Below, piece by piece: positions 2,837 through 38,216 of a DNA stretch of 42,540 nt. Each line of letters opens with the position of its first letter. Position 1 is the first letter of the stretch. This stretch comes from a virus. Its lineage: Duplodnaviria > Heunggongvirae > Uroviricota > Caudoviricetes. Below the pieces are notes generated by a model that was not told where the DNA came from, searched no databases, and saw nothing but the letters and a program-made list of their open reading frames with translations. The translations under genes and the position numbers were made by a program. Where the stretch lies: the IMG/VR virus record IMGVR_UViG_2541047682_000006. One strand, 5' to 3'.

Positions 2837-4050
2837 TATTTTTCAACCTCTGACAGGGGTAAGTAATGAGATGTCTGTAATGTCAAACTCTCTATCTCAA
2901 AGGAAATGTTGCTGATATTTTGACCTGCAAATTGCGGATGCCACTCAGCGCCAGGGAATAACATTTCCGCAGAAGTAGCAACTATAGGGTCAATAGCATT
3001 AAGATAATGTAACTTATCAGGTGCGCTGTGTAACAGTAACCACTGCAACTCCACTGAAGGATTTGTAAAATGTTCTAATAAATGAAAGTTATTATGTAGT
3101 ACGCTTAGTAAAAAACTGGTTTCGTATACTTCCGTTACATATTTCCACCCCTGATATTCAGGTGTATTTTCATAAACAATACCCATACCTTCACAATCAC
3201 TATGTCGAACTGCTTGTGGTGATAATAGTTGCAAAAGAGACAAAACATCGTCCGCATATTTTTTAACTGGATGACGATTTTGCTTACCTTTTATTTGATC
3301 AATTTCAAGTGAATCACCAACAACATTGAGAGCAATAGTAACATGAGGAATATTATTATTATCACGCAAACTGAATAACCGTAATTTATGTTGCTCAATT
3401 TGATTTGCATAATACTCACCATAACCACCGGTAAGATTTTTTCGATCATCAAACTGGCCTACGCAATGTTGCATATGCCATGATTCATAAGCCATTTCAC
3501 GACGAAGGTTCGAATGACTGGCATCAAACTCAACAATTTTTCCGTCTGGCACATCAAGTATTGACTTTACAGTATTTTGTTCACTCGGCTGCCACCCTTT
3601 CTCGCGTCGTTGAAGCATCTTTTCATGCTCTTCTTCACGCATTCTGAACGCAACGTAGCAGGTTATGCGCTGTAGTTTTGATTCCAGACGGGTACCACAT
3701 TTCCTGGAAAGAAATTCCACCAACTCCCGTTCTTTGGTTAATATTTGTTGATGATCGGTTTCGATATAATAAAGTGTCGCAGTTGATACTGAGGCAGTAT
3801 TAAACTTCGATACCAGCCATTCCGGGATTACATCATCATTTTTATTAAACAGTGAATATTCTGCAAGCGAGTTAATTTGTTGCACCATTGGAAAGTCACT
3901 AATTAGCCATCGATAAAAATGGTTGAGTAACCATTTTTGGATGGTCTCATTATCCTGGCGAAACAGACTTCTTTGCAAAATTGCTGTTTTTACTTCCGGG
4001 GCATTAATTACATCCCTTGCATTATAATTCTGGTGAATATTTCCAGTCAT
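2836..4050 (-). CDS. Hypothetical protein (404 aa), first gene of the three-gene operon
   Basis: Long ORF with ATG start at 4048-4050 and a ~480-bp AT-rich upstream region facing yegQ; no recognisable catalytic motif. Confidence 0.55.
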   Translation of the reverse strand: MTGNIHQNYNARDVINAPEVKTAILQRSLFRQDNETIQKWLLNHFYRWLISDFPMVQQINSLAEYSLFNKNDDVIPEWLVSKFNTASVSTATLYYIETDHQQILTKERELVEFLSRKCGTRLESKLQRITCYVAFRMREEEHEKMLQRREKGWQPSEQNTVKSILDVPDGKIVEFDASHSNLRREMAYESWHMQHCVGQFDDRKNLTGGYGEYYANQIEQHKLRLFSLRDNNNIPHVTIALNVVGDSLEIDQIKGKQNRHPVKKYADDVLSLLQLLSPQAVRHSDCEGMGIVYENTPEYQGWKYVTEVYETSFLLSVLHNNFHLLEHFTNPSVELQWLLLHSAPDKLHYLNAIDPIVATSAEMLFPGAEWHPQFAGQNISNISFEIESLTLQTSHYLPLSEVEK

Positions 4051-4537
4051 AACATCCGCCCGTGTTTATTATATCACTCAAAGCAATAATTGTTGACTAT
4101 AGATTTTTTATCTAAATCAGCATGGTTGCAGGTACATACTCAAGTAAGCCACTCAAGAAAATAACGTAAACTCAATAGTGGCAGCGTCACAAACTTTGGA
4201 AATTATGTCTTATATTTGCAGTTTATTTTAGTGAATAATTGAGATAAATGACATTATTTTACATCCTCAATAATTCAGGCTGTAAGAGGACGGCAAATAC
4301 ATTCATAATTATCAGGGGATGAACATTCAGGAAAGTAGTCAGTATCGTCAACTTTTTCTTTTATCACTACATGAAGATTTCGTGTAGATACTCCCATCTC
4401 TGCCACTTCTCCCCTCACATTTACACTGGAGCTAAACCCGCCGATTGCGCTACAATGCCCGCCCTTAAAGTGGGGGCACTCCCCTAACCGCTTCATCAGG
4501 TGAAGCGGCTCTGACCTGTCATCAGAACGAGAGAATT

Positions 4538-5899
4538 ATGTTTAAACCGGAACTCCTTTCCCCGGCGGGAACGCTGAAAAATATGCGTTACGCTTTCGCT
4601 TATGGCGCAGATGCTGTTTATGCGGGCCAGCCGCGTTACTCCCTGCGTGTACGCAACAACGAATTCAACCACGAAAATCTTCAGCTCGGCATCAATGAAG
4701 CCCACGCGCTGGGGAAAAAGTTTTATGTCGTGGTCAACATTGCACCGCACAACGCCAAGCTGAAAACCTTTATCCGTGACCTGAAACCGGTGGTGGAAAT
4801 GGGGCCGGATGCGCTGATTATGTCCGATCCAGGGCTGATTATGCTGGTGCGTGAACACTTCCCGGAAATGCCAATCCACCTCTCGGTACAGGCTAACGCC
4901 GTAAACTGGGCGACGGTGAAATTCTGGCAGCAAATGGGTCTGACCCGCGTGATCCTCTCTCGCGAACTGTCACTGGAAGAGATTGAAGAGATCCGCAATC
5001 AGGTGCCGGATATGGAGATCGAAATCTTCGTTCACGGCGCGCTGTGCATGGCCTACTCCGGTCGCTGCCTGCTCTCTGGCTATATCAACAAGCGCGACCC
5101 GAACCAGGGCACCTGCACCAACGCCTGCCGCTGGGAGTACAATGTCCAGGAAGGGAAAGAAGATGACGTCGGCAACATCGTACACAAGTACGAGCCGATT
5201 CCGGTGCAAAATGTTGAGCCGACGCTGGGTATCGGCGCGCCAACCGACAAAGTGTTTATGATCGAAGAAGCCCAGCGTCCGGGCGAGTATATGACCGCGT
5301 TTGAAGATGAGCACGGCACTTACATCATGAACTCGAAAGATCTGCGCGCCATCGCCCATGTTGAACGCCTGACCAAAATGGGCGTGCATTCGCTGAAAAT
5401 CGAAGGCCGTACCAAATCTTTCTACTATTGCGCACGCACCGCGCAGGTTTACCGTAAAGCTATCGATGACGCCGCTGCGGGCAAACCGTTCGATACCAGC
5501 CTGCTGGAAACGCTGGAAGGTCTGGCGCATCGTGGCTATACCGAAGGTTTCCTGCGTCGTCATACCCACGACGATTATCAGAACTACGAATACGGTTATT
5601 CGGTTTCTGACCGCCAGCAGTTTGTTGGTGAGTTTACCGGTGAGCGCAAGGGGGAGCTCGCGGCGGTAGCGGTGAAAAATAAATTCTCCGTTGGCGACAG
5701 CCTTGAGCTGATGACGCCGCAAGGCAACATTAACTTTACCCTTGAGCATATGGAAAACGCCAAAGGTGAAGCGATGCCGGTCGCACCAGGCGATGGTTAT
5801 ACTGTGTGGCTCCCGGTGCCGCAGGATCTTGAGCTAAATTACGCGCTGCTGATGCGTAATTTCTCCGGGGAAACCACGCGTAACCCCCACGGTAAGTGA
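4538..5899 (+). CDS. yegQ: U32-family peptidase-like protein YegQ (TrhP, tRNA hydroxylation)
   Basis: 453-aa ORF whose translation (MFKPELLSPAGTLKNMRYAFAYGADAVYAGQPRYSLR...) matches my recollection of E. coli YegQ; the Cys-rich segment CTNACRWEY is typical of the U32 family. Confidence 0.9.
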   Translation: MFKPELLSPAGTLKNMRYAFAYGADAVYAGQPRYSLRVRNNEFNHENLQLGINEAHALGKKFYVVVNIAPHNAKLKTFIRDLKPVVEMGPDALIMSDPGLIMLVREHFPEMPIHLSVQANAVNWATVKFWQQMGLTRVILSRELSLEEIEEIRNQVPDMEIEIFVHGALCMAYSGRCLLSGYINKRDPNQGTCTNACRWEYNVQEGKEDDVGNIVHKYEPIPVQNVEPTLGIGAPTDKVFMIEEAQRPGEYMTAFEDEHGTYIMNSKDLRAIAHVERLTKMGVHSLKIEGRTKSFYYCARTAQVYRKAIDDAAAGKPFDTSLLETLEGLAHRGYTEGFLRRHTHDDYQNYEYGYSVSDRQQFVGEFTGERKGELAAVAVKNKFSVGDSLELMTPQGNINFTLEHMENAKGEAMPVAPGDGYTVWLPVPQDLELNYALLMRNFSGETTRNPHGK

Positions 5900-11052: not shown

Positions 11053-11571
11053 TCACAGGCCGATATTGCGGCGGTGTTGCTCCAGCCGGTCGACGCCGTT
11101 CACCTTCTCAATCATGTTGATGGTGTCGATTTCGACCAGCTCCTTACCGTCCATCGTCAGCCGGAAATAGGTGCAGACCACGGAGATTTTCGACTCGGTG
11201 TCTTCTCCCTGTTTGCCCTCGCCGGTGTCGATTTCTTTCTGACGTCCACGCATGACCACCTCGACGGCCACCGTTTCGCCGGTATCGTCGCGCTGGTAAG
11301 AGCCTGCAAAACGAATCGGTACGGAATCCACACCGGTTGCGGCGTAAAGCTCCCAGATAACCGAATCCGGGAAGCCACCGAGCGACCACTCCATTGACAG
11401 CGCATCGTCATCAAGGCCGAGGTCTACCGGTGCGCTGCCGTTCATCCCCGCACCGCGATAGTTTTCGAGCTTACGGGTCAGTTTTGGTAGCGTGACGGAC
11501 TTCGCGACGCCCTGATAGCTGTAGCCGTTCAGAAAGACGTTCATTAACTTGAGTTTGCGCGGCATTGCCAT
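11053..11571 (-). CDS. FII: Tail tube protein (P2 gpFII-like)
   Basis: 172-aa ORF, ATG at 11569-11571, immediately after FI. Confidence 0.85.
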   Translation of the reverse strand: MAMPRKLKLMNVFLNGYSYQGVAKSVTLPKLTRKLENYRGAGMNGSAPVDLGLDDDALSMEWSLGGFPDSVIWELYAATGVDSVPIRFAGSYQRDDTGETVAVEVVMRGRQKEIDTGEGKQGEDTESKISVVCTYFRLTMDGKELVEIDTINMIEKVNGVDRLEQHRRNIGL

Positions 11572-12776
11572 CGGTCAGGCTCCTTATAATTGCTGTTAAC
11601 CGAGGTGACCAGATTTGCCAGGTATTTATCGGTAATACGCTGGCGCAGGGTCAGGTTTTCAAGAGGAGGCACCGGTGTATAGTCGTAGTCGATATACAGT
11701 TTTCCGGCCTTGAGGGTTTCCGCATCGTTGGATTCTTCGCTGAACCAGCAGGTCGCATCCACGATATAGCCGTTTGTTTTCAGCTCACGGAATTTGGCAT
11801 TGATGCCGTCAACGATGTCGCGAATCAGCGTTGCGGTGATGGGCTTGTCCACCGCCCACATGTGCGCCTCAGCCATCGTGTCAGCCAGTACCTGCGCGGT
11901 GCGGGTGTAGTTTTCAAAGAGGAACAGCGGGTCATCAGAGCAGGTACGGTTACCCCAGAATCGGAAACCGTCGCGGCGAATCAGCGTAGTGACGCCTGAC
12001 TCGTTAAGCAGGTCAGCATCGGTGCCGGACTCCTGCAAATCCCAGAATACAGATGCGCTGATGCCGGTAACACCGTTTACCCCGACGTTGGACAGCGTTT
12101 TATGCCAGCCCTGCTCCTGGTCGATTTTAGCGCGCAGACCCAGCGCACGGGCGGTGGCATACGCGGTAGCGGTGGTACTGGTGACCGTATCCCATGCGAG
12201 GAAATCCGGCCAGATGACCATCAGCTCACGCTGGCTGAAATTCTGGCGGTAGGCTTTCACCTCGGAAATGGTCTTACAGCCCCATGCGCTGATATATCCG
12301 AAAGCGCGCAGCTTCTGACAGACGGATGCCAGTGCAACAGCCACCTCTTTGGTATCCAGTCCCGGCACACCGAGAATACGCGGTTTAACACCGGTTACCG
12401 ACTCCGCCGCCAGCAGGGCTTTTAGTCCGGTGTACTGACCGTTTTCGTCGGTGGTGCCGATGATATTGGAAACGGTCTGCGCGAGTTTCGTTTCCTCGTC
12501 ATCACCGGTGCAGTCTTCCACGCGCACGACAACGGTGACCGGTTTTGACTGGTCAGCGATGGCCTGCAACGATGCCGCCAGCGTGCCTTTTTTACCGGCC
12601 TTTGCAATTGCGCTTTGCACATTGGTAATCAGCACCGGTTTATTGAGGGGGAAGGTTTCCGCATCCGCATCGCTGGCCGTGCAGACCATGCCGACAATGG
12701 CAGTGGATACGGTGGAAATGACGCGGGTGCCGTCGTTAATCTCCAGCACCTGCACGCCATGATGATAGTCACTCAT
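11544..12776 (-). CDS. FI: Contractile tail sheath protein (P2 gpFI-like)
   Basis: 410-aa ORF, first gene of the FI-FII-E-T-U-D block; its 3' end overlaps the FII start by 28 nt. Confidence 0.85.
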   Translation of the reverse strand: MSDYHHGVQVLEINDGTRVISTVSTAIVGMVCTASDADAETFPLNKPVLITNVQSAIAKAGKKGTLAASLQAIADQSKPVTVVVRVEDCTGDDEETKLAQTVSNIIGTTDENGQYTGLKALLAAESVTGVKPRILGVPGLDTKEVAVALASVCQKLRAFGYISAWGCKTISEVKAYRQNFSQRELMVIWPDFLAWDTVTSTTATAYATARALGLRAKIDQEQGWHKTLSNVGVNGVTGISASVFWDLQESGTDADLLNESGVTTLIRRDGFRFWGNRTCSDDPLFLFENYTRTAQVLADTMAEAHMWAVDKPITATLIRDIVDGINAKFRELKTNGYIVDATCWFSEESNDAETLKAGKLYIDYDYTPVPPLENLTLRQRITDKYLANLVTSVNSNYKEPDRWQCRANSS

Positions 12777-12871
12777 CCGTTTAACTCCGTGGTTAATGGG
12801 TACAACTATTTTCTGTTGTGCAGAGCATAAGACGCTATTTGACCTGGCTGGTCAGTGGATGAAACAACAGA

Positions 12872-12899
12872 TAAAGAAAAGGCGGGCAATTCGCCCGCC
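12872..12899 (-). terminator. Rho-independent terminator (minus strand) separating the cargo/tail-fibre transcripts from the FI operon
   Basis: GC-rich stem GGCGGGC/GCCCGCC (12881-12899, 5-nt loop) followed on the minus strand by a T-rich run (plus AGAAAA at 12875-12880). Confidence 0.5.
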
Positions 12900-12962
12900 T
12901 GTCCTGATTTGTACTCACTCATTTTCCGCCTGACAATTTACATAGCCCAAATGCTATCAAAC

Positions 12963-12974
12963 CTGACAGTCTGC
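12963..12974. repeat. 12-bp repeat CTGACAGTCTGC (copy 1), at the left edge of the AT-rich cargo island
   Basis: Exact 12-bp inverted match to 15395-15406 and 11-bp direct match to 15273-15283. Confidence 0.6.
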
Positions 12975-13106
12975 TTTGAGCGAAAAGTGGACATTAGAGT
13001 TACAAAAGCAAGTTTAAATCATCCAAAATATTACAATGTCCTTATCTATCTGATATCGTTATGATAAAAAGCTCCTGAATATAATCGATAGTAGGTGGTT
13101 ATTTCC

Positions 13107-13484
13107 ATGAAATCAATTTTAGAGGTCTTTACTCAAGGAAATACTAAAGAAAAACTGGCTGTTATCGCCGATCTCACAACCATTGCGGGAATATCGATTG
13201 CAACTATTATTGCTGGTTTGTTAACCCTAGTTGCAAAAACAGATAAACTAGATGTTGGAAATCTGTTTGGAGTTGTCATAATATCTCTGCTCGGATTGGC
13301 TGGTGTTTGCTGTTTTGTGGCCTTATTTATTTGGGTTATAACCCAAATGTCTAAACCATGGGGAACACCTCGGGGGGTTCAGCCCTTAGTTAAGTGTGCT
13401 ATTTCCCTTATCTTTATCTGTATGTTTTTGCTGGCTGTCTTTACATTTTATGAGTTTATTTCTTCGATGAGCATACGCTATTGA
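13107..13484 (+). CDS. Small hydrophobic membrane protein (~125 aa, 3-4 predicted TM helices), hypothetical
   Basis: Track ORF 13095..13484 (GTG); ATG at 13107 with an upstream AGGTGG. Hydrophobic stretches IAGISIATIIAGLLTLVA, VVIISLLGLAGVCCFVALFIWVI, ISLIFICMFLLAVFTFY. AT-rich; convergent with the recombinase gene. Confidence 0.5.
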   Translation: MKSILEVFTQGNTKEKLAVIADLTTIAGISIATIIAGLLTLVAKTDKLDVGNLFGVVIISLLGLAGVCCFVALFIWVITQMSKPWGTPRGVQPLVKCAISLIFICMFLLAVFTFYEFISSMSIRY

Positions 13485-13506
13485 ATATAAAATCAGCCCC
13501 CATAAC

Positions 13507-14091
13507 TTAAAAGAGACCTTCTATATCGACTTCAATGCCCAAATAACGGACTGTGCTTTCCAGTTTCTTATGGCCCAACAGAAGTTGGATCACCCGGAGA
13601 CTCTTGGTTTTCTTGTAGATTAAGTAAGGTTTTGTTCTTCTCATGGAATGTGTGCTGTACAGCGAATCTTCGAGACCAAGCTTTTCTACCCACCCATGAA
13701 AAATTCGGTTGTATTGCCGGGTTGATATATGGTGGTTAGTTCCGACCCGAGAGCGGAACAGGAAGCCTTTACTATGCCAGTTGCCGAGCTTTATCAATGC
13801 AGTAACCGCTTCCCTTGTCCCTTTGGTTATCTCAAATTGGACAGGGCTGCCGGTTTTCTGTTGCAACACCGTTGCTCTGCTTGAGACAGAACTGCCATAT
13901 GCAGCATCTGATACTTTGAGTTTGACCAAATCACAGCCCCGTAGCTTAGTGTCCAAAGCCATGTTGAACAGAGCTAGATCGCGTGTTTTACCTTCCAACT
14001 CAAGTCTAATCCGGATCCCCCAGATATGAAATATCTGAAGTGGCCTTTTTTGACCGATGGTACGGTCTTTATTCCACGGTGACGTTTTCAT
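13507..14091 (-). CDS. Small tyrosine site-specific recombinase (FimB/FimE-like invertase/integrase catalytic domain, ~194 aa)
   Basis: Translation carries the tyrosine-recombinase motifs in order: Arg box (ALDTKLRGCDLVKLKVSD), HSMRRT (H-x-x-R), LLGH, and RYLG (nucleophile Tyr). ATG at 14089-14091 with AGGAG Shine-Dalgarno; the track ORF starts upstream at a TTG. Confidence 0.7.
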   Translation of the reverse strand: MKTSPWNKDRTIGQKRPLQIFHIWGIRIRLELEGKTRDLALFNMALDTKLRGCDLVKLKVSDAAYGSSVSSRATVLQQKTGSPVQFEITKGTREAVTALIKLGNWHSKGFLFRSRVGTNHHISTRQYNRIFHGWVEKLGLEDSLYSTHSMRRTKPYLIYKKTKSLRVIQLLLGHKKLESTVRYLGIEVDIEGLF

Positions 14092-14197
14092 ATTCAAATC
14101 TCCTGCAATGTGGGAGATTTGAGTATGGTTGTCTCTCAAGAGCGAAAATAAGTCAACTATCACTAGTTGTTGCGCATGTACGTATTCTGTCAATTAA

Positions 14198-15040
14198 TTA
14201 TTGACAATCATCAATTCTGGAATGATCAAAATCATCATATCGAATTATAGTCTGGTTGACTGTATCTATTGTTGGTGTCATTTCTGTTATAATATCCTGA
14301 TAACCTAAAGAGTTAAATACATTTACTAAGGCCTCACACCGAAGGGCCGTAGCAATTACAAAATTATAAATTGCCAGCCGTTTATTTTCTTGTTTAACTG
14401 CAAGAATGAATTCGATAGCAGTATTTTCATCACTTTGGATTGCATTATATAGAGATACTATATTTACCATATCATCAGAGAATGTATGTATTGAATCACA
14501 AAGGGGAACGTAATGGGCATGATAGTGTGTTTCCCAGCCAATTAATTCAAAAAGTCTTCTGGTTCCTGGATATTCAGGTGTATTTGGCCACAATCTATTA
14601 AATAGATCAGTTAGTTCTTTTCCCATGCGAATCCTTTCATTTGCTGCTGGATTAGTCATTCCTTTGGATTTTAAACACTCCAGCCACCGTTTTCCATTAC
14701 TATGAACTAATTTCTTACTAGCCTTGAGTAATGCTTGTGCATTTTCGCCATCATCTATTGCTATATAAAATTGATTGGCAGCCTGTTCTATTATAACCCT
14801 AGCTAATACTTCCGATGCTGAAAAGGCTCCTATATTCAAAGAAGAGATAGCCTGATTACTAAGTTCATTCAGTACATTAAAGTACTGTAAGACCATCAAT
14901 TTTTGTTCCACACCCTTTAGGTTGTCTATTTTATTTTTATGCTCCTCAAATTTTGCATGGATATATTTATTTATCGCGGCTATTTTTTTTACATCTTCGT
15001 CAAGATCAAACGGGCAACGTCCAAACAATTCTTTTTTCAT
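14198..15040 (-). CDS. Hypothetical protein (280 aa), AT-rich cargo gene directly upstream of the recombinase
   Basis: ORF with ATG start and AGGAG Shine-Dalgarno; 4-nt gap to the recombinase ORF; preceded by a 420-bp noncoding leader containing the repeat copies. Confidence 0.6.
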   Translation of the reverse strand: MKKELFGRCPFDLDEDVKKIAAINKYIHAKFEEHKNKIDNLKGVEQKLMVLQYFNVLNELSNQAISSLNIGAFSASEVLARVIIEQAANQFYIAIDDGENAQALLKASKKLVHSNGKRWLECLKSKGMTNPAANERIRMGKELTDLFNRLWPNTPEYPGTRRLFELIGWETHYHAHYVPLCDSIHTFSDDMVNIVSLYNAIQSDENTAIEFILAVKQENKRLAIYNFVIATALRCEALVNVFNSLGYQDIITEMTPTIDTVNQTIIRYDDFDHSRIDDCQ

Positions 15041-15272
15041 ATATTTCTCCTGTTGTACAAGCTTCCATAAGTTGGCAGATTATACACTGAAGATTACCTA
15101 TAAATAGCTGTGCGGGATAGCAGATCAGTGCAAGAAGTACAACCAAGTGAACTGTGCGTATTCAGATACCTGGCCTAACGTTCGCGATAGCCGTCCCCTG
15201 CACGAAGCCATATATTAGATGTATTAGCTCAGACCTTATCTGACAGGTTGAGTAGGTAGAATCTAATCAAAG

Positions 15273-15283
15273 CTGACAGTCTG
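15273..15283. repeat. 11-bp repeat CTGACAGTCTG (copy 2, direct)
   Basis: Exact 11-bp match to 12963-12973 and inverted match to 15396-15406; lies in the leader between the 280-aa gene and G. Confidence 0.6.
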
Positions 15284-15394
15284 GTTTGGACTGTGAGTTC
15301 AACCGATGGATGCAACACACAGCGATCTACGGACATTACTAGCATAGCTGTGTATTAATCATCGGGAAGCAGGTCAGTCCGCTCCTAGCACAGA

Positions 15395-15406
15395 GCAGAC
15401 TGTCAG
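15395..15406. repeat. 12-bp repeat GCAGACTGTCAG (copy 3, inverted orientation)
   Basis: Reverse complement CTGACAGTCTGC equals 12963-12974; with copy 2 it flanks a 111-bp segment. Confidence 0.6.
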
Positions 15407-15461
15407 ATTAGGCTTTACTCTGTGCTATAGATACGTTAGCTCACTCCAGAGATCATACAAC

Positions 15462-15989
15462 TTATTGCGGCATTTCCGGCCATTCAGGATTTGCAGGATC
15501 CACACGGCTGACCAGAACACTGTAGCGTTCCCATGCTTCCAGTCGGCTACGCTCCTCATCTGTTGCCATATTCAGTCTGACAGAGCGTTCCAGTGGCTGA
15601 ATGATAGTTTCAGCTTCGGAAAGCAAAGCTGACTTCTGTAATTCCGCCAGTTGCAGCTGTTCGTCTGCCGTATAAATCCGCTTAATCACGGCACCATCCT
15701 TAAACATCCATTTACCTGAGTCATCAGCACGTCGGTTGGCGGTAATATCAGGAACCTCGACAACGCTAAAACCTTCAGGGTTGAGCGTTGAAGCATCTCT
15801 GGTGATGCCGACAATTATATTATTCTCATCGTAAACAATCTTTATCGTGTCTTCCTGAAAATTACTTACTTCCTCATACCAGTTTTTTCCCTCTTCGGAC
15901 CATAACCAGATAACATCAAAATTTTTTGTCAGTTGATATTGGGCAACAGTTTTTGGATTACCCGCAGTAATATTTTTTAAATGCTGCAT
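15462..15989 (-). CDS. G: Tail fibre assembly chaperone (P2 gpG-like)
   Basis: 175-aa ORF immediately downstream of H, at the P2 position. Confidence 0.8.
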
Positions 15990-35924: not shown

Positions 35925-38216
35925 TCAAACACAGAAAAAATCAAAGCGCCCTATGAATCCCCCCCAACCATCAGCGACCGGATACGTGAATTTTTTCCCG
36001 TCATAATTTACGGTCGCTCCACGCGCCAGCGCCTCAAGCTCCCATCGCTGCGGCATGATACCGTTCTGAGCAAGGTCAACGCGGATACGGGTGATTTGCA
36101 ATCGTTCAGACCTGGTCAGTCTGGCAGATGGTGCAATTTCATGCGGTTTTAACGGGCTTCCGTTTCTTTGCTGACGGTTTGGCGTTCTCAGGTCGTATTT
36201 TAATGCGCCCCTGAGCGCCCTCACGACCTCCGGTTCATTCCATTCAATAACACCGTCATCAACCAGATTAAGCACTGCTGCGGCGTGCTCAGAAGGTGTG
36301 GGAGCCGGTAACGAAGTATCACCACCGGTGAGCTTTCCACAGTTATTGACAGGACTCCGAGGCGCGGCGATGCCGCTTTTTAAAGTCAAAGGCTCAACGA
36401 CCGGAACTTTCGGCACAATGCGCCAGTCCGTCGTTCTGGTGATATGAATATGACGCGCGCCGAGATGCGGCGCGTAAATGCCGACCACTCTCTCGACTTC
36501 TTCCTCGTACTCGTTAACGTCATCCGACGGGCTACGGGCAACCCTGACAGTCTGACAATCGCGCGGGACATTTGCCCCACCCTGCGCGCTGATATACAAC
36601 GCAAAATCACCACTGTCTGCGGCAGCGCGAGCAGCCTCGACGCGTTCGTCAAACTCATCAGCAATACTGACGCCGCGAGGCAATTTGCGTAGTTCACGGT
36701 AAGCCCCCATTGTCGGCAGGCCAACCGTTTTAAATTGCGGAATTCGCCACGTTGACGCCCATGCGGTAACAGCCGCAGCAGTATCTTTCAGCGGCCTGCC
36801 GGTATCATTATCGAGCTGACCATCCAGTGCATAGCCATCGATGTTTTTTGAGATGTATTTTGCGATATACCCCGCAGCACCGCCCCGGTTAAGATGTTTT
36901 GCCTGAAAACGGTTTCGCGCGGCTCCTCTTTCGTCGCCATCCTCTTTGAGCGCATAGCGACGCATGATTTCGATAATCTGGTTACGCTGGCGTGGATTAC
37001 AAAAAAGCATCATATGCCAGTGCGGCGTTCCGTCGTGGTGTGGCTCGACGACACGCAAACCGTAGACCTGTAAATCATTATCCTTGAATGCCGTGCGCAT
37101 CAGGCTCCAGATATGGCAGAGATAACGCTGCGCATCCTTTGGATTAAATGCCTCATCGTTCCAGCCGTGATTTAGCTGGACGGTTTTACTTTCGCCTTTT
37201 CCGACCTGACGTGTCGGGTGATACTTTGACGGCGCGGTAAGCGTGATAAACATCCCCACATCACCCTCTGCGGCGGCGTAACGCTCAATACCGGCAATGG
37301 TGTTCATCAGCTCCATCCGGCGAATTTCAGGATTAGAAATACTGCCCATCACCTTACTGATAAGGTCGATGCGTTCGCCGGTTTCCCTGTTTTCAAGGTC
37401 ACACGATTTAAGAAATTCCAGATTTGCCTGGCGGCGTGCACGCACATCACGAATGGCATGTTTACTGGCATAAGGTGAACGGTCTTTATTGACCTCCCCG
37501 ACAGCAATCAGTAACGCCTCATGCCAGCGCATACGCTGGCCTTTAAGCTGACTAATCCACCACTCATCGTTAAACAGGCGGGCAATGGCAGAATATGCCT
37601 GCCTCGTGGTCATCTGTCCTTTACGGTATTTTTTCCAGTAGAGCGGGGAAATATTGAAAGCACGTGCAGCGCCAGCAACATGACCATAGAGGTGAGCCTG
37701 CGCCTCATCCGTAAACAGCGATTCTTTTTCGCCATGCGCATCCACCCAGGCATCGCAGAGTTCCTCATACATCATGAAAAGCTGCGATGAGATACGGGCG
37801 GCAAACTTTTTCAGCTCCTTATCATTCATCCCCGGCAGACGCGCATAATGGTCACGCTCTGCCAGAAACAGCAACGACGCGTCGGTGTTCATTTCATGGC
37901 GCTGATTCACACGCTCAATGCGCGGCCATAAACGACGCTGAAAAGTGGATGTGAGGAAATAAAACCCGTGCACCGGGCTTTTATTGCGCCGGATGTAGTC
38001 ATAGCGTGAAGTAAACAGCGAGCGCAAAAAGTAAGGCAGGCGGTTAATCGTGGATAAAACACCTTGCACCTGACGCATCTCGTCACGTGTAAGGGGTCTT
38101 TCGCGCCCGACGGCCTCGCGTGGCGCGTTCCATGCATAAGCACCGGTAAACGTCTTACCGGTGCCTGCGGTAAATGCTGACGGAGGGACAAAACGCCCGG
38201 AGGCTTTAACGGCCAT
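35925..38216 (-). CDS. A: Replication initiation endonuclease (P2 gpA-like, rolling-circle)
   Basis: Track ORF 35925..38258 begins at a TTG; the ATG at 38214-38216 (MAVKASGRFVPPSAF...) gives ~763 aa, close to P2 gpA; contains an H-x-H motif (HWHMMLF) typical of rolling-circle initiators. Confidence 0.8.
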   Translation of the reverse strand: MAVKASGRFVPPSAFTAGTGKTFTGAYAWNAPREAVGRERPLTRDEMRQVQGVLSTINRLPYFLRSLFTSRYDYIRRNKSPVHGFYFLTSTFQRRLWPRIERVNQRHEMNTDASLLFLAERDHYARLPGMNDKELKKFAARISSQLFMMYEELCDAWVDAHGEKESLFTDEAQAHLYGHVAGAARAFNISPLYWKKYRKGQMTTRQAYSAIARLFNDEWWISQLKGQRMRWHEALLIAVGEVNKDRSPYASKHAIRDVRARRQANLEFLKSCDLENRETGERIDLISKVMGSISNPEIRRMELMNTIAGIERYAAAEGDVGMFITLTAPSKYHPTRQVGKGESKTVQLNHGWNDEAFNPKDAQRYLCHIWSLMRTAFKDNDLQVYGLRVVEPHHDGTPHWHMMLFCNPRQRNQIIEIMRRYALKEDGDERGAARNRFQAKHLNRGGAAGYIAKYISKNIDGYALDGQLDNDTGRPLKDTAAAVTAWASTWRIPQFKTVGLPTMGAYRELRKLPRGVSIADEFDERVEAARAAADSGDFALYISAQGGANVPRDCQTVRVARSPSDDVNEYEEEVERVVGIYAPHLGARHIHITRTTDWRIVPKVPVVEPLTLKSGIAAPRSPVNNCGKLTGGDTSLPAPTPSEHAAAVLNLVDDGVIEWNEPEVVRALRGALKYDLRTPNRQQRNGSPLKPHEIAPSARLTRSERLQITRIRVDLAQNGIMPQRWELEALARGATVNYDGKKFTYPVADGWGGFIGRFDFFCV

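Follow-up and report, generated by a model that had tools for sequence, protein, structure and literature searches.

The inverted repeat and its genomic context

The 42,540-nucleotide (nt) viral stretch IMGVR_UViG_2541047682_000006, hereafter the window, is a P2-like prophage, and the inverted repeat studied here bounds its variable Z/fun slot. According to Pfam, the backbone gene to the left of the bracketed region is the tail sheath gene FI (Phage_sheath_1; positions 11544–12776, minus strand), and the one to its right is the tail-fibre assembly gene G (Caudo_TAP; 15462–15989, minus strand). An intrinsic terminator upstream of the sheath gene (12880–12900, minus strand) also belongs to the backbone and closes the slot. 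P2 itself has the same gene order, and its repeat arms surround a 900-nt open reading frame (ORF); from the known gene order of P2, we take the slot position to be that of the nonessential Z/fun gene. Z/fun is one of two variable loci of P2-like phages with anti-phage genes (PMC9122126). In the window, the slot contains ORFs for a 125-residue predicted membrane protein, a 195-residue tyrosine recombinase, and a 280-residue DUF5677 protein, none of which was matched by PADLOC.

The 12-mer CTGACAGTCTGC is located at 12963–12974 on the plus strand, and its exact reverse complement at 15395–15406. The first-pass annotation of this DNA had described the pair as exact, as enclosing all three cargo genes, and as very unlikely by chance. 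Each of these statements holds. The ORF positions place the three genes between the two copies, and allowing up to one mismatch, the window has four matches to CTGACAGTCTGC against 0.14 expected, a number reached in none of 100 shuffles. The third match, CTGACAGTCTGG, has one mismatch and is situated within the bracketed region (15273–15284, plus strand). The fourth, a one-mismatch copy at 36544 (plus strand), is probably due to chance because it lies inside a long ORF of 777 residues. Twelve nucleotides understate the repeat, as the inverted complementarity spans 33 nt at 79% (12960–12992 and 15377–15409). Besides, a 49-nt direct repeat of 71% identity relates the left flank (12930–12978) to positions 15240–15288. 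In 38 of the 41 cargo types described below, the right arm reads GCGGACTGTCAG, which is complementary to the left 12-mer at 11 of 12 positions. The window alone among these types has GCAGAC instead of GCGGAC in the right outer half, and this substitution makes its 12-mer pair exact. Exactness is hence specific to the lineage; the conserved feature is a 30-nt imperfect inverted repeat, of which the 12-mer is the outer part, namely the phage-side half of a boundary site.

The repeat is already known as the annotated boundary repeat of the P2-like Z/fun slot. A megablast search against phage records matched the flanks alone. In the 'proviral Z-region' records AJ512683 (P2-EC58) and AJ512685 (P2-EC67), whose flanks are 92–93% identical to those of the window, an unrelated ORF is enclosed by features labelled 'left inverted repeat' (113 nt) and 'right inverted repeat' (91 nt). 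Both records show the arms, with the same sequence at the same locus as in the window, while the window cargo (membrane ORF, truncated recombinase, and DUF5677 gene) is not in either. The two records reportedly belong to Nilsson, Karlsson and Haggard-Ljungquist (Mol Biol Evol, 2004). As summarised in a 2022 review, the 2004 proposal was a site-specific exchange between phages and bacteria (PMC8987985).

Cargo of the slot

Two pattern scans of IMG/VR yielded 93 loci with both flanks. These loci hold 41 unrelated cargo types of 788–5837 nt, all bracketed by the same arms, and in every type the homology to the window ends at 12986–12996 on the left and at 15375–15388 on the right. Only one of 74 cargo proteins matches Phage_integrase, and it is the window's own, leaving one of 41 cargo types with a recombinase. 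The other cargo proteins include AbiGi, RES, DarT with Macro, Shedu, and AAA_21/AbiEii, as well as proteins of the Lamassu LmuB, PARIS AriA, and Septu PtuA types. Because 41 unrelated cargos lie between the same arms, the repeat is a property of the phage slot and not of the window cargo or its recombinase, to which it had been tied at first. The presence of the repeats in homologous islands, which the first-pass annotation had made the point to look at, was confirmed in all of them.

We then inspected orientation and occupancy. Among the 93 loci, no cargo type occurs in both orientations, and no minus-strand match of at least 100 nt exists between cargos. The window island is found in 36 complete Escherichia coli genomes, including the type strain ATCC 11775 (DSM 30083), whose copy is identical to that of the window, and is colinear with its flanks in all 36. 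A synthetic query joining the left and right flanks gave no spanning match in the 1426 E. coli genomes that carry the flanks. As the shortest cargo measures 788 nt, the slot seems to be always occupied. The comparison thus portrays a slot whose content appears to be exchanged, with no sign of flipping or emptying.

Anatomy of the arms

The two arms were dissected by alignment across the 41 cargo types (coordinates refer to the plus strand). The left arm, an L-type site, occupies 12963–12992. Its outer half, CTGACA-GTCTGCTTT (12963–12977), contains the 12-mer and is near-invariant, as is the 6-bp core GAGCGA (12978–12983). Its inner half, AAAGTGGAC (12984–12992), is a rare variant with GTGGAC that recurs in two arrays outside P2 (L316 and L288). 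The window cargo begins with ATT at 12993. The right arm, an R-type site, occupies 15377–15406 and is composed of the inner half GTCCGCTCC (15377–15385), the core TAGCAC (15386–15391; TGGCAC in 35 of the 41 types), and the outer half AGA-GCAGAC-TGTCAG (15392–15406), which contains the other 12-mer. The consensus is CTGACA-GTCTGCTTT-GAGCGA-RRAGCGGAC for the left arm, directly followed by cargo, and GTCCGCTYY-TGGCAC-AGAGCGGAC-TGTCAG for the right arm, directly preceded by cargo. Each arm, an element of 24–30 bp, consists of two inverted 9-bp halves (GTCYGCTYY and RRAGCGGAC) around a 6-bp core, with a phage-side extension (CTGACA or TGTCAG). This 9-6-9 layout is that of a tyrosine-recombinase core site, whose hallmarks, inverted half-sites, a core of 6–8 bp, and a switch at the core, are all present.

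The conservation pattern changes within each arm. The left outer half is identical in 30 of the 41 types, the left core in 35, the right core in 35, and the right outer half in 38. The inner 12 nt, on the other hand, exist in 36–37 distinct variants on each side, and are identical in a fraction of 0.78–0.86 of the pairs within a type versus 0.01 of the pairs between types. The first three cargo positions follow RTT in 32, 35, and 28 types, and the last three follow AAY in 28, 36, and 37 types. Since the outer half and core are conserved and the inner half is cargo-specific, the transition between sequence linked to the backbone and sequence linked to the cargo is located at the core, as would be expected for a crossover there. 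The arms hence sit exactly at the cargo edges with the anatomy of recombination sites, as had been supposed. The accompanying suggestion that the 12-mers are terminal repeats of a mobile cassette is not supported: the half containing the 12-mer stays with the phage backbone, and the inner half alone moves with the cargo. The two cores also differ from each other, the reverse complement of the right one (GTGCCA) matching the left one at four of six positions.

Rfam gave no match on 12700–15600 at E ≤ 1. In a terminator and promoter scan, the arms did not score as terminators, and terminator-like sites were limited to 12880–12900 and a hairpin at the start of the recombinase gene. Single-strand folds of arms and junctions are modest hairpins with z-scores of −0.5 to −3.2. 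We also considered that the cargo might be closed by a long stem of RNA or single-stranded DNA. This is unsupported, since within loci no covariation links the left to the right inner halves (7.88 versus 7.68 in permuted pairs, p about 0.14).

Cassettes and arrays outside P2

Several P2 cargos are also present as cassettes in other genomes. One cargo equals a cassette of L316 at 97% identity (L003), where L316 is a non-P2 prophage with ImmA/IrrE and anti-repressor genes. A 1312-nt cargo of a P2-like phage (L016) recurs with 100% identity as a cassette of L267, a phage contig unrelated to it, and this points to a very recent transfer. A third (L009) equals a cassette of L273 at 99% and one in an Erwinia aeris island (L150) at 92.6%, and a fourth (L023) equals cassettes of L316, L288, and L252 at 95%. 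The end points of these shared cassettes are the same to the nucleotide. Their inner halves and cores are identical while the outer halves differ, and the rare inner-half variants AAAGCGGGC and GTCTGCAAT are shared between P2 and non-P2 copies of a cassette.

In the other prophages and islands, cassettes are separated by a composite junction of about 66 bp, at a spacing of 1–4 kb. In the orientation of the recombinase gene, the junction starts directly after the cassette end AAY with GTCCGC-TYYT-CGCTCA-NA-GCGGAC; about 18 nt later follows GTCCGC-TNN-GTGCCA-RRA-GCGGAC, and the next cassette begins with RTT. The composite junction is thus a left-type and a right-type 24-bp site placed back to back. 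A degenerate pattern of it matches 108 IMG/VR stretches (L234 onward), of which a few are estimated to be chance matches, and the phage stretches with composite junctions bear arrays of up to four cassettes. Seven of the 41 P2 cargo types are likewise multi-cassette, with internal sites. Arrays of one-gene cassettes of about 0.9–1.2 kb are seen in L316 (2245–5310), in L152, L154, L156, and L157, and in the 108 IMG/VR stretches; such arrays are located in non-P2 prophages and islands, mostly with no recombinase gene nearby. One P2 cargo (L066) has at its position 1318 a single internal site, GTCCGC-TCTTCGCACGCA-GCGGAC, whose core TCGCAC is in part like the left-type and in part like the right-type core. 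It has the appearance of a composite junction that was reduced to one site when the two in it recombined.

A family of small tyrosine recombinases linked to the sites

The window recombinase belongs to a very large family of catalytic-domain-only proteins of about 200 residues, with intact E. coli members in L229 and L230. A protein search with it scored at least 8000 candidates, all with E < 1e-5. In genomes chosen to represent species, a relative is encoded by 550 of 600 candidate stretches. The family ranges over Enterobacterales, Pseudomonas, Alteromonadales, and many Betaproteobacteria, and a homologue is found in 942 of 5426 complete E. coli genomes. Its genes sit in islands and cryptic prophages beside variable, often defence-like genes. 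The family is not classifiable with any named group. The window protein scores 49 and 43 bits on the XerA and XerC models (cut-offs 220 and 335), 22.9 bits on the NCBIfam 'tyrosine-type DNA invertase' model NF007371 (cut-off 222), and 18 bits on the integron-integrase models TIGR02249 and NF011946 (cut-offs 265 and 435). The closest solved structure is the catalytic domain of XerD (E = 2e-5).

Native family genes are framed by the halves of the composite junction. Upstream lies AAY followed by GTCCGC-TYYT-CGCTCA; downstream lies a hairpin and then TGTGCCA-RRA-GCGGAC followed by RTT. Read on the opposite strand, these end motifs correspond to the left and right arms of P2. Across 78 loci at species level, 35 downstream motifs were counted where 3.5 were expected (p = 4e-23), and 31 upstream motifs where 6.2 were expected (p = 1e-12). 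This enrichment test replaced a generic search for the best inverted repeat, whose background of 10–11 matches in 14 was too noisy. The motifs are kept across Gamma- and Betaproteobacteria at 62–96% protein identity and vary with the gene clade, from CGCTCA/GTGCCA in Enterobacterales to TGGCCGG in Pseudomonas (GTCCGCTTCTGGCCGG / CCGGCCAGAAGCGGCC). With these motifs around it, the family gene occupies a junction position between left-type and right-type halves. The P2 genome occupies the equivalent position. Cassettes directly abutting a family gene are also P2 cargos: the AbiGi cassette in L143 matches the right-hand cassette of L066, and the one in L158 matches part of the L065 cargo.

Proposed cassette exchange and its alternatives

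We propose that the 12-mers mark the cassette-exchange sites of the Z/fun slot, with the family of about 200 residues as the most likely enzyme, and put the probability of this reading at roughly 0.6. The left and right sites face each other as an inverted pair with different cores, GAGCGA against TGGCAC (TAGCAC in the window). Site-specific exchange would replace the cargo by pairing left sites with each other and right sites with each other, and the crossover would occur at the core. With the crossover there, the outer half and core would stay with the phage, and the inner half would move together with the RTT...AAY cargo ends. Because the two cores differ, the slot would be swapped with orientation kept, and would be neither emptied nor flipped. 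The same cassettes and sites form the arrays of other prophages and genomic islands, with the composite junctions of about 66 bp between them. Tyrosine recombinases normally need identical cores in both partners, a demand that left-left and right-right exchange would satisfy.

Several observations weigh against this reading. The support is comparative throughout, and no recombination product, circle, or alternative junction was seen. Only five of 106 phage stretches with composite junctions carry a recombinase gene, which would require the enzyme to work in trans. Under strict patterns, just some 40% of the family loci have a given end motif. In the comparison of L065 with L158, one cassette end is joined to a left-type core in P2 and, beside the recombinase gene, to a core of the right type, which does not fit a strict two-site rule. 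Finally, the recombinase gene of the window is 3′-truncated with its own flanking sites decayed, and for these reasons probably does nothing at the locus now.

The serious alternative, which we consider unlikely, is that the arms are real cassette-exchange sites for a different enzyme (host XerCD, a phage integrase, or an unidentified protein), the small recombinase being a frequent neighbour. The scarcity of the gene in array-bearing phage stretches agrees with this, as does the diversity of the slot in spite of 83% of E. coli genomes having no family gene. Against it, the family gene lies in the junction between site halves and not in cassette position, and the end motifs both persist over the proteobacterial range given above and change with the gene clade. 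To our knowledge, the arms do not resemble dif or cer.

Less probable still is homologous recombination in the conserved flanks with no site-specific step, the repeat being kept for another role, for instance that of an insulator or an RNA stem serving the late transcript. The phage flanks are indeed about 90–100% conserved over hundreds of bases, homologous exchange is among the options listed in recent literature, and each arm is able to form a small hairpin. Nevertheless, P2 and non-P2 contexts share just the sites of about 24 bp and yet have identical cassettes and end points, and the break between backbone and cargo falls at the 6-bp core in all types. The RNA role is opposed by the Rfam, terminator, and covariation results described above.

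A transposon-like cassette carrying its own terminal inverted repeats is very improbable. The arms are inverted and lie exactly at the edges of variable DNA, but the outer halves with the 12-mer remain in the backbone and only the inner 9–12 nt travel. Moreover, the flanks (...TCAAAC and ATTAGG...) show no direct repeat that would represent a target-site duplication, and 40 of the 41 cargo types have no transposase, the sole DDE match being an insertion sequence within one cargo.

The remaining idea, which the first-pass annotation had raised, is that the neighbouring recombinase flips the 2.4-kb module via the 12-mers; FimB/FimE act on fimS in such a way. It has in its favour inverted sites near a small, catalytic-domain-only tyrosine recombinase with a weak match to the invertase model, but is close to refuted, as all membership tests run came out against it: the invertase score is about a tenth of the cut-off, one of 41 cargo types has a recombinase, islands and cargos keep a single orientation, the cores differ between arms, 16 native loci of the recombinase family lack the 12-mer, and the local gene has lost its native 3′ end and the protein its C-terminus.

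Comparison with known systems

The proposed exchange resembles integrons in the use of a tyrosine recombinase, in arrays of one- or two-gene cassettes with imperfect palindromic junctions, in the many anti-phage cargos, and in the conserved AAY...RTT triplets at cassette ends; attC cassette ends in integrons are AAC...GTT. Of the attC boxes (RYYYAAC ... GTTRRRY), the AAY and RTT triplets alone are kept here, and the adjoining positions do not fit RYYY/RRRY. Different from integrons, the recombinase has about 200 residues, no N-terminal domain, and scores far below the IntI cut-offs. The junction consists of two 24-bp 9-6-9 sites about 18 nt apart, a layout that appears to differ from attC, and the recombinase gene lies inside it. 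The cassettes have their own promoters and lie in either direction, and no empty acceptor site was found in the 1426 genomes with flanks.

Xer-dependent dif modules (pdif) of Acinetobacter plasmids are alike in being small modules (resistance, toxin-antitoxin, defence) with inversely oriented core sites on many replicons. The 28-bp pdif sites, of the layout XerC-6-XerD, serve the host Xer system, whereas the arms appear to have another sequence and are linked to a dedicated recombinase family. FimB/FimE-fimS shares a small tyrosine recombinase of similar size beside inverted repeats, but the features of an invertible switch (both orientations, invertase score, linkage, identical cores) were not found at the slot.

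A further parallel is engineered recombinase-mediated cassette exchange with loxP/lox2272 or FRT/F3, in which same-arm sites with different cores flank a cassette. Heterospecific sites allow the cassette to be replaced with no excision or inversion and with its orientation kept, matching the lack of empty slots and inverted cargos and the fixed left/right polarity seen here. That system is a laboratory design, while the mechanism at the Z/fun slot is deduced from comparison. We know of no natural system of heterospecific recombinase-mediated cassette exchange. The wider proposition, for which we would give slightly less than even odds, is that the Z/fun arms belong to a natural cassette system that is integron-like but distinct, with junction-encoded recombinases of about 200 residues and double exchange at heterospecific 9-6-9 sites. 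If true, natural recombinase-mediated cassette exchange would move defence cassettes among phages, other prophages, and genomic islands, which would explain the rapid, scar-free swapping of anti-phage systems. The arrays would be a new class to mine for defence genes, and the small recombinase with its heterospecific sites a possible tool.

With the repeat itself being a rediscovery, the follow-up offers a testable answer to how defence systems are exchanged. A 2026 survey of P2/P4 defence hotspots describes the exchange route between hotspots and other mobile elements as not known (PMC13586616). We found no enzyme named for the 2004 proposal of site-specific recombination in the literature accessible to us, in which a search for the site sequences returned unrelated primers alone and no cassette system of this type was found described. 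The same literature contains neither the 9-6-9 anatomy with two cores and a crossover located to the 6-bp core, nor the composite-junction arrays in prophages and islands and their link to the recombinase; for all of these, overlap with Nilsson et al. (2004) is possible.

Contents and proposed history of the window island

Cassette A (12993–13525, plus strand) corresponds to the initial 533 nt of the L023 cassette, which measures 856 nt in full; the break lies within the loop of the terminator hairpin. Cassette A encodes the 125-residue predicted membrane protein (13107–13484, plus strand; PHROG 4155). The complete 856-nt version is present in the P2-like L023 and in the non-P2 arrays L316, L288, and L252, and cassette A shares with the L023 cassette the rare inner half AAAGTGGAC.

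The recombinase gene (13507–14094, minus strand) encodes a Phage_integrase catalytic domain alone (E = 1e-17), in which the catalytic R, H-x-x-R, H, and Y (Y184) are kept. Family homology covers 13526–14146 and ends 12 codons, stop included, before the native gene end. The native C-terminal 11 residues DALEISESIEV are replaced by IEGLF, as the ORF continues into half of the cassette A terminator hairpin. On its 5′ side, the homology stops at 14145/14146, where the core of a left-type site, now decayed, has its inner edge. This site (GAGCGA-AAAATAA-GTCAAC; 14131–14157, plus strand) is the recombinase-proximal end of the DUF5677 cassette, and native family loci have TGAGCGAGGA-GCGGAC at the position.

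A 15-bp inverted repeat with a 9-nt loop (14089–14127, minus strand) covers the Shine-Dalgarno sequence (GGAG) and the ATG of the recombinase gene. It is kept across the family with compensating changes, e.g. GTCCTCC/GGAGGAC in Pseudomonas. The idea that it is the recombinase's own recombination site was considered and rejected, since its arms span both the ribosome-binding site and the start codon, with covariation throughout the family. It probably folds into a hairpin to block translation from read-through transcripts, and it is part of the gene, not a cargo boundary.

Cassette B contains the DUF5677 gene (14198–15040, minus strand; PHROG 4167), which lies directly upstream of the recombinase gene in two contexts. 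A 2025 preprint chose a DUF5677 ORF for anti-phage testing (PMC12632615). Beyond it are a decayed inter-cassette junction (15186–15297, plus strand), which includes the third motif copy and the 49-nt repeat of the left flank, and a 79-nt remnant (15298–15376) that extends to the right arm. The DUF5677 and recombinase genes form a block with the 336 nt upstream of DUF5677, including the third motif copy. The block is also present, at about 85% identity, in a Qin-like lambdoid prophage (L232; E. coli ESBL 15, 3532–5316), where the recombinase gene retains its native 3′ end but is frameshifted. Because the same sequence is found there, the decayed junction and the third motif copy belong to the block and not to P2.

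The simplest history suggested by these comparisons would be a three-cassette array whose recombinase-bearing junction was later damaged by deletion. The original order would have been left arm, cassette A, recombinase-bearing junction, DUF5677 cassette, plain junction, 79-nt remnant, and right arm. Roughly 400 bp would then have been lost by deletion, comprising the terminal part of cassette A, a single site, and the 3′ end of the recombinase gene.

Two minor observations concern the surroundings of the block. In L232, it adjoins an AAA ATPase and HNH pair and hokD/rem. In two strains, the window-type island contains an insertion sequence at a place equivalent to about 15235 of the window (H1 GPEC128-620; L233 98208); one belongs to the IS3 family, and the other is ISEc12 (IS21 family), inserted directly before the third motif copy.

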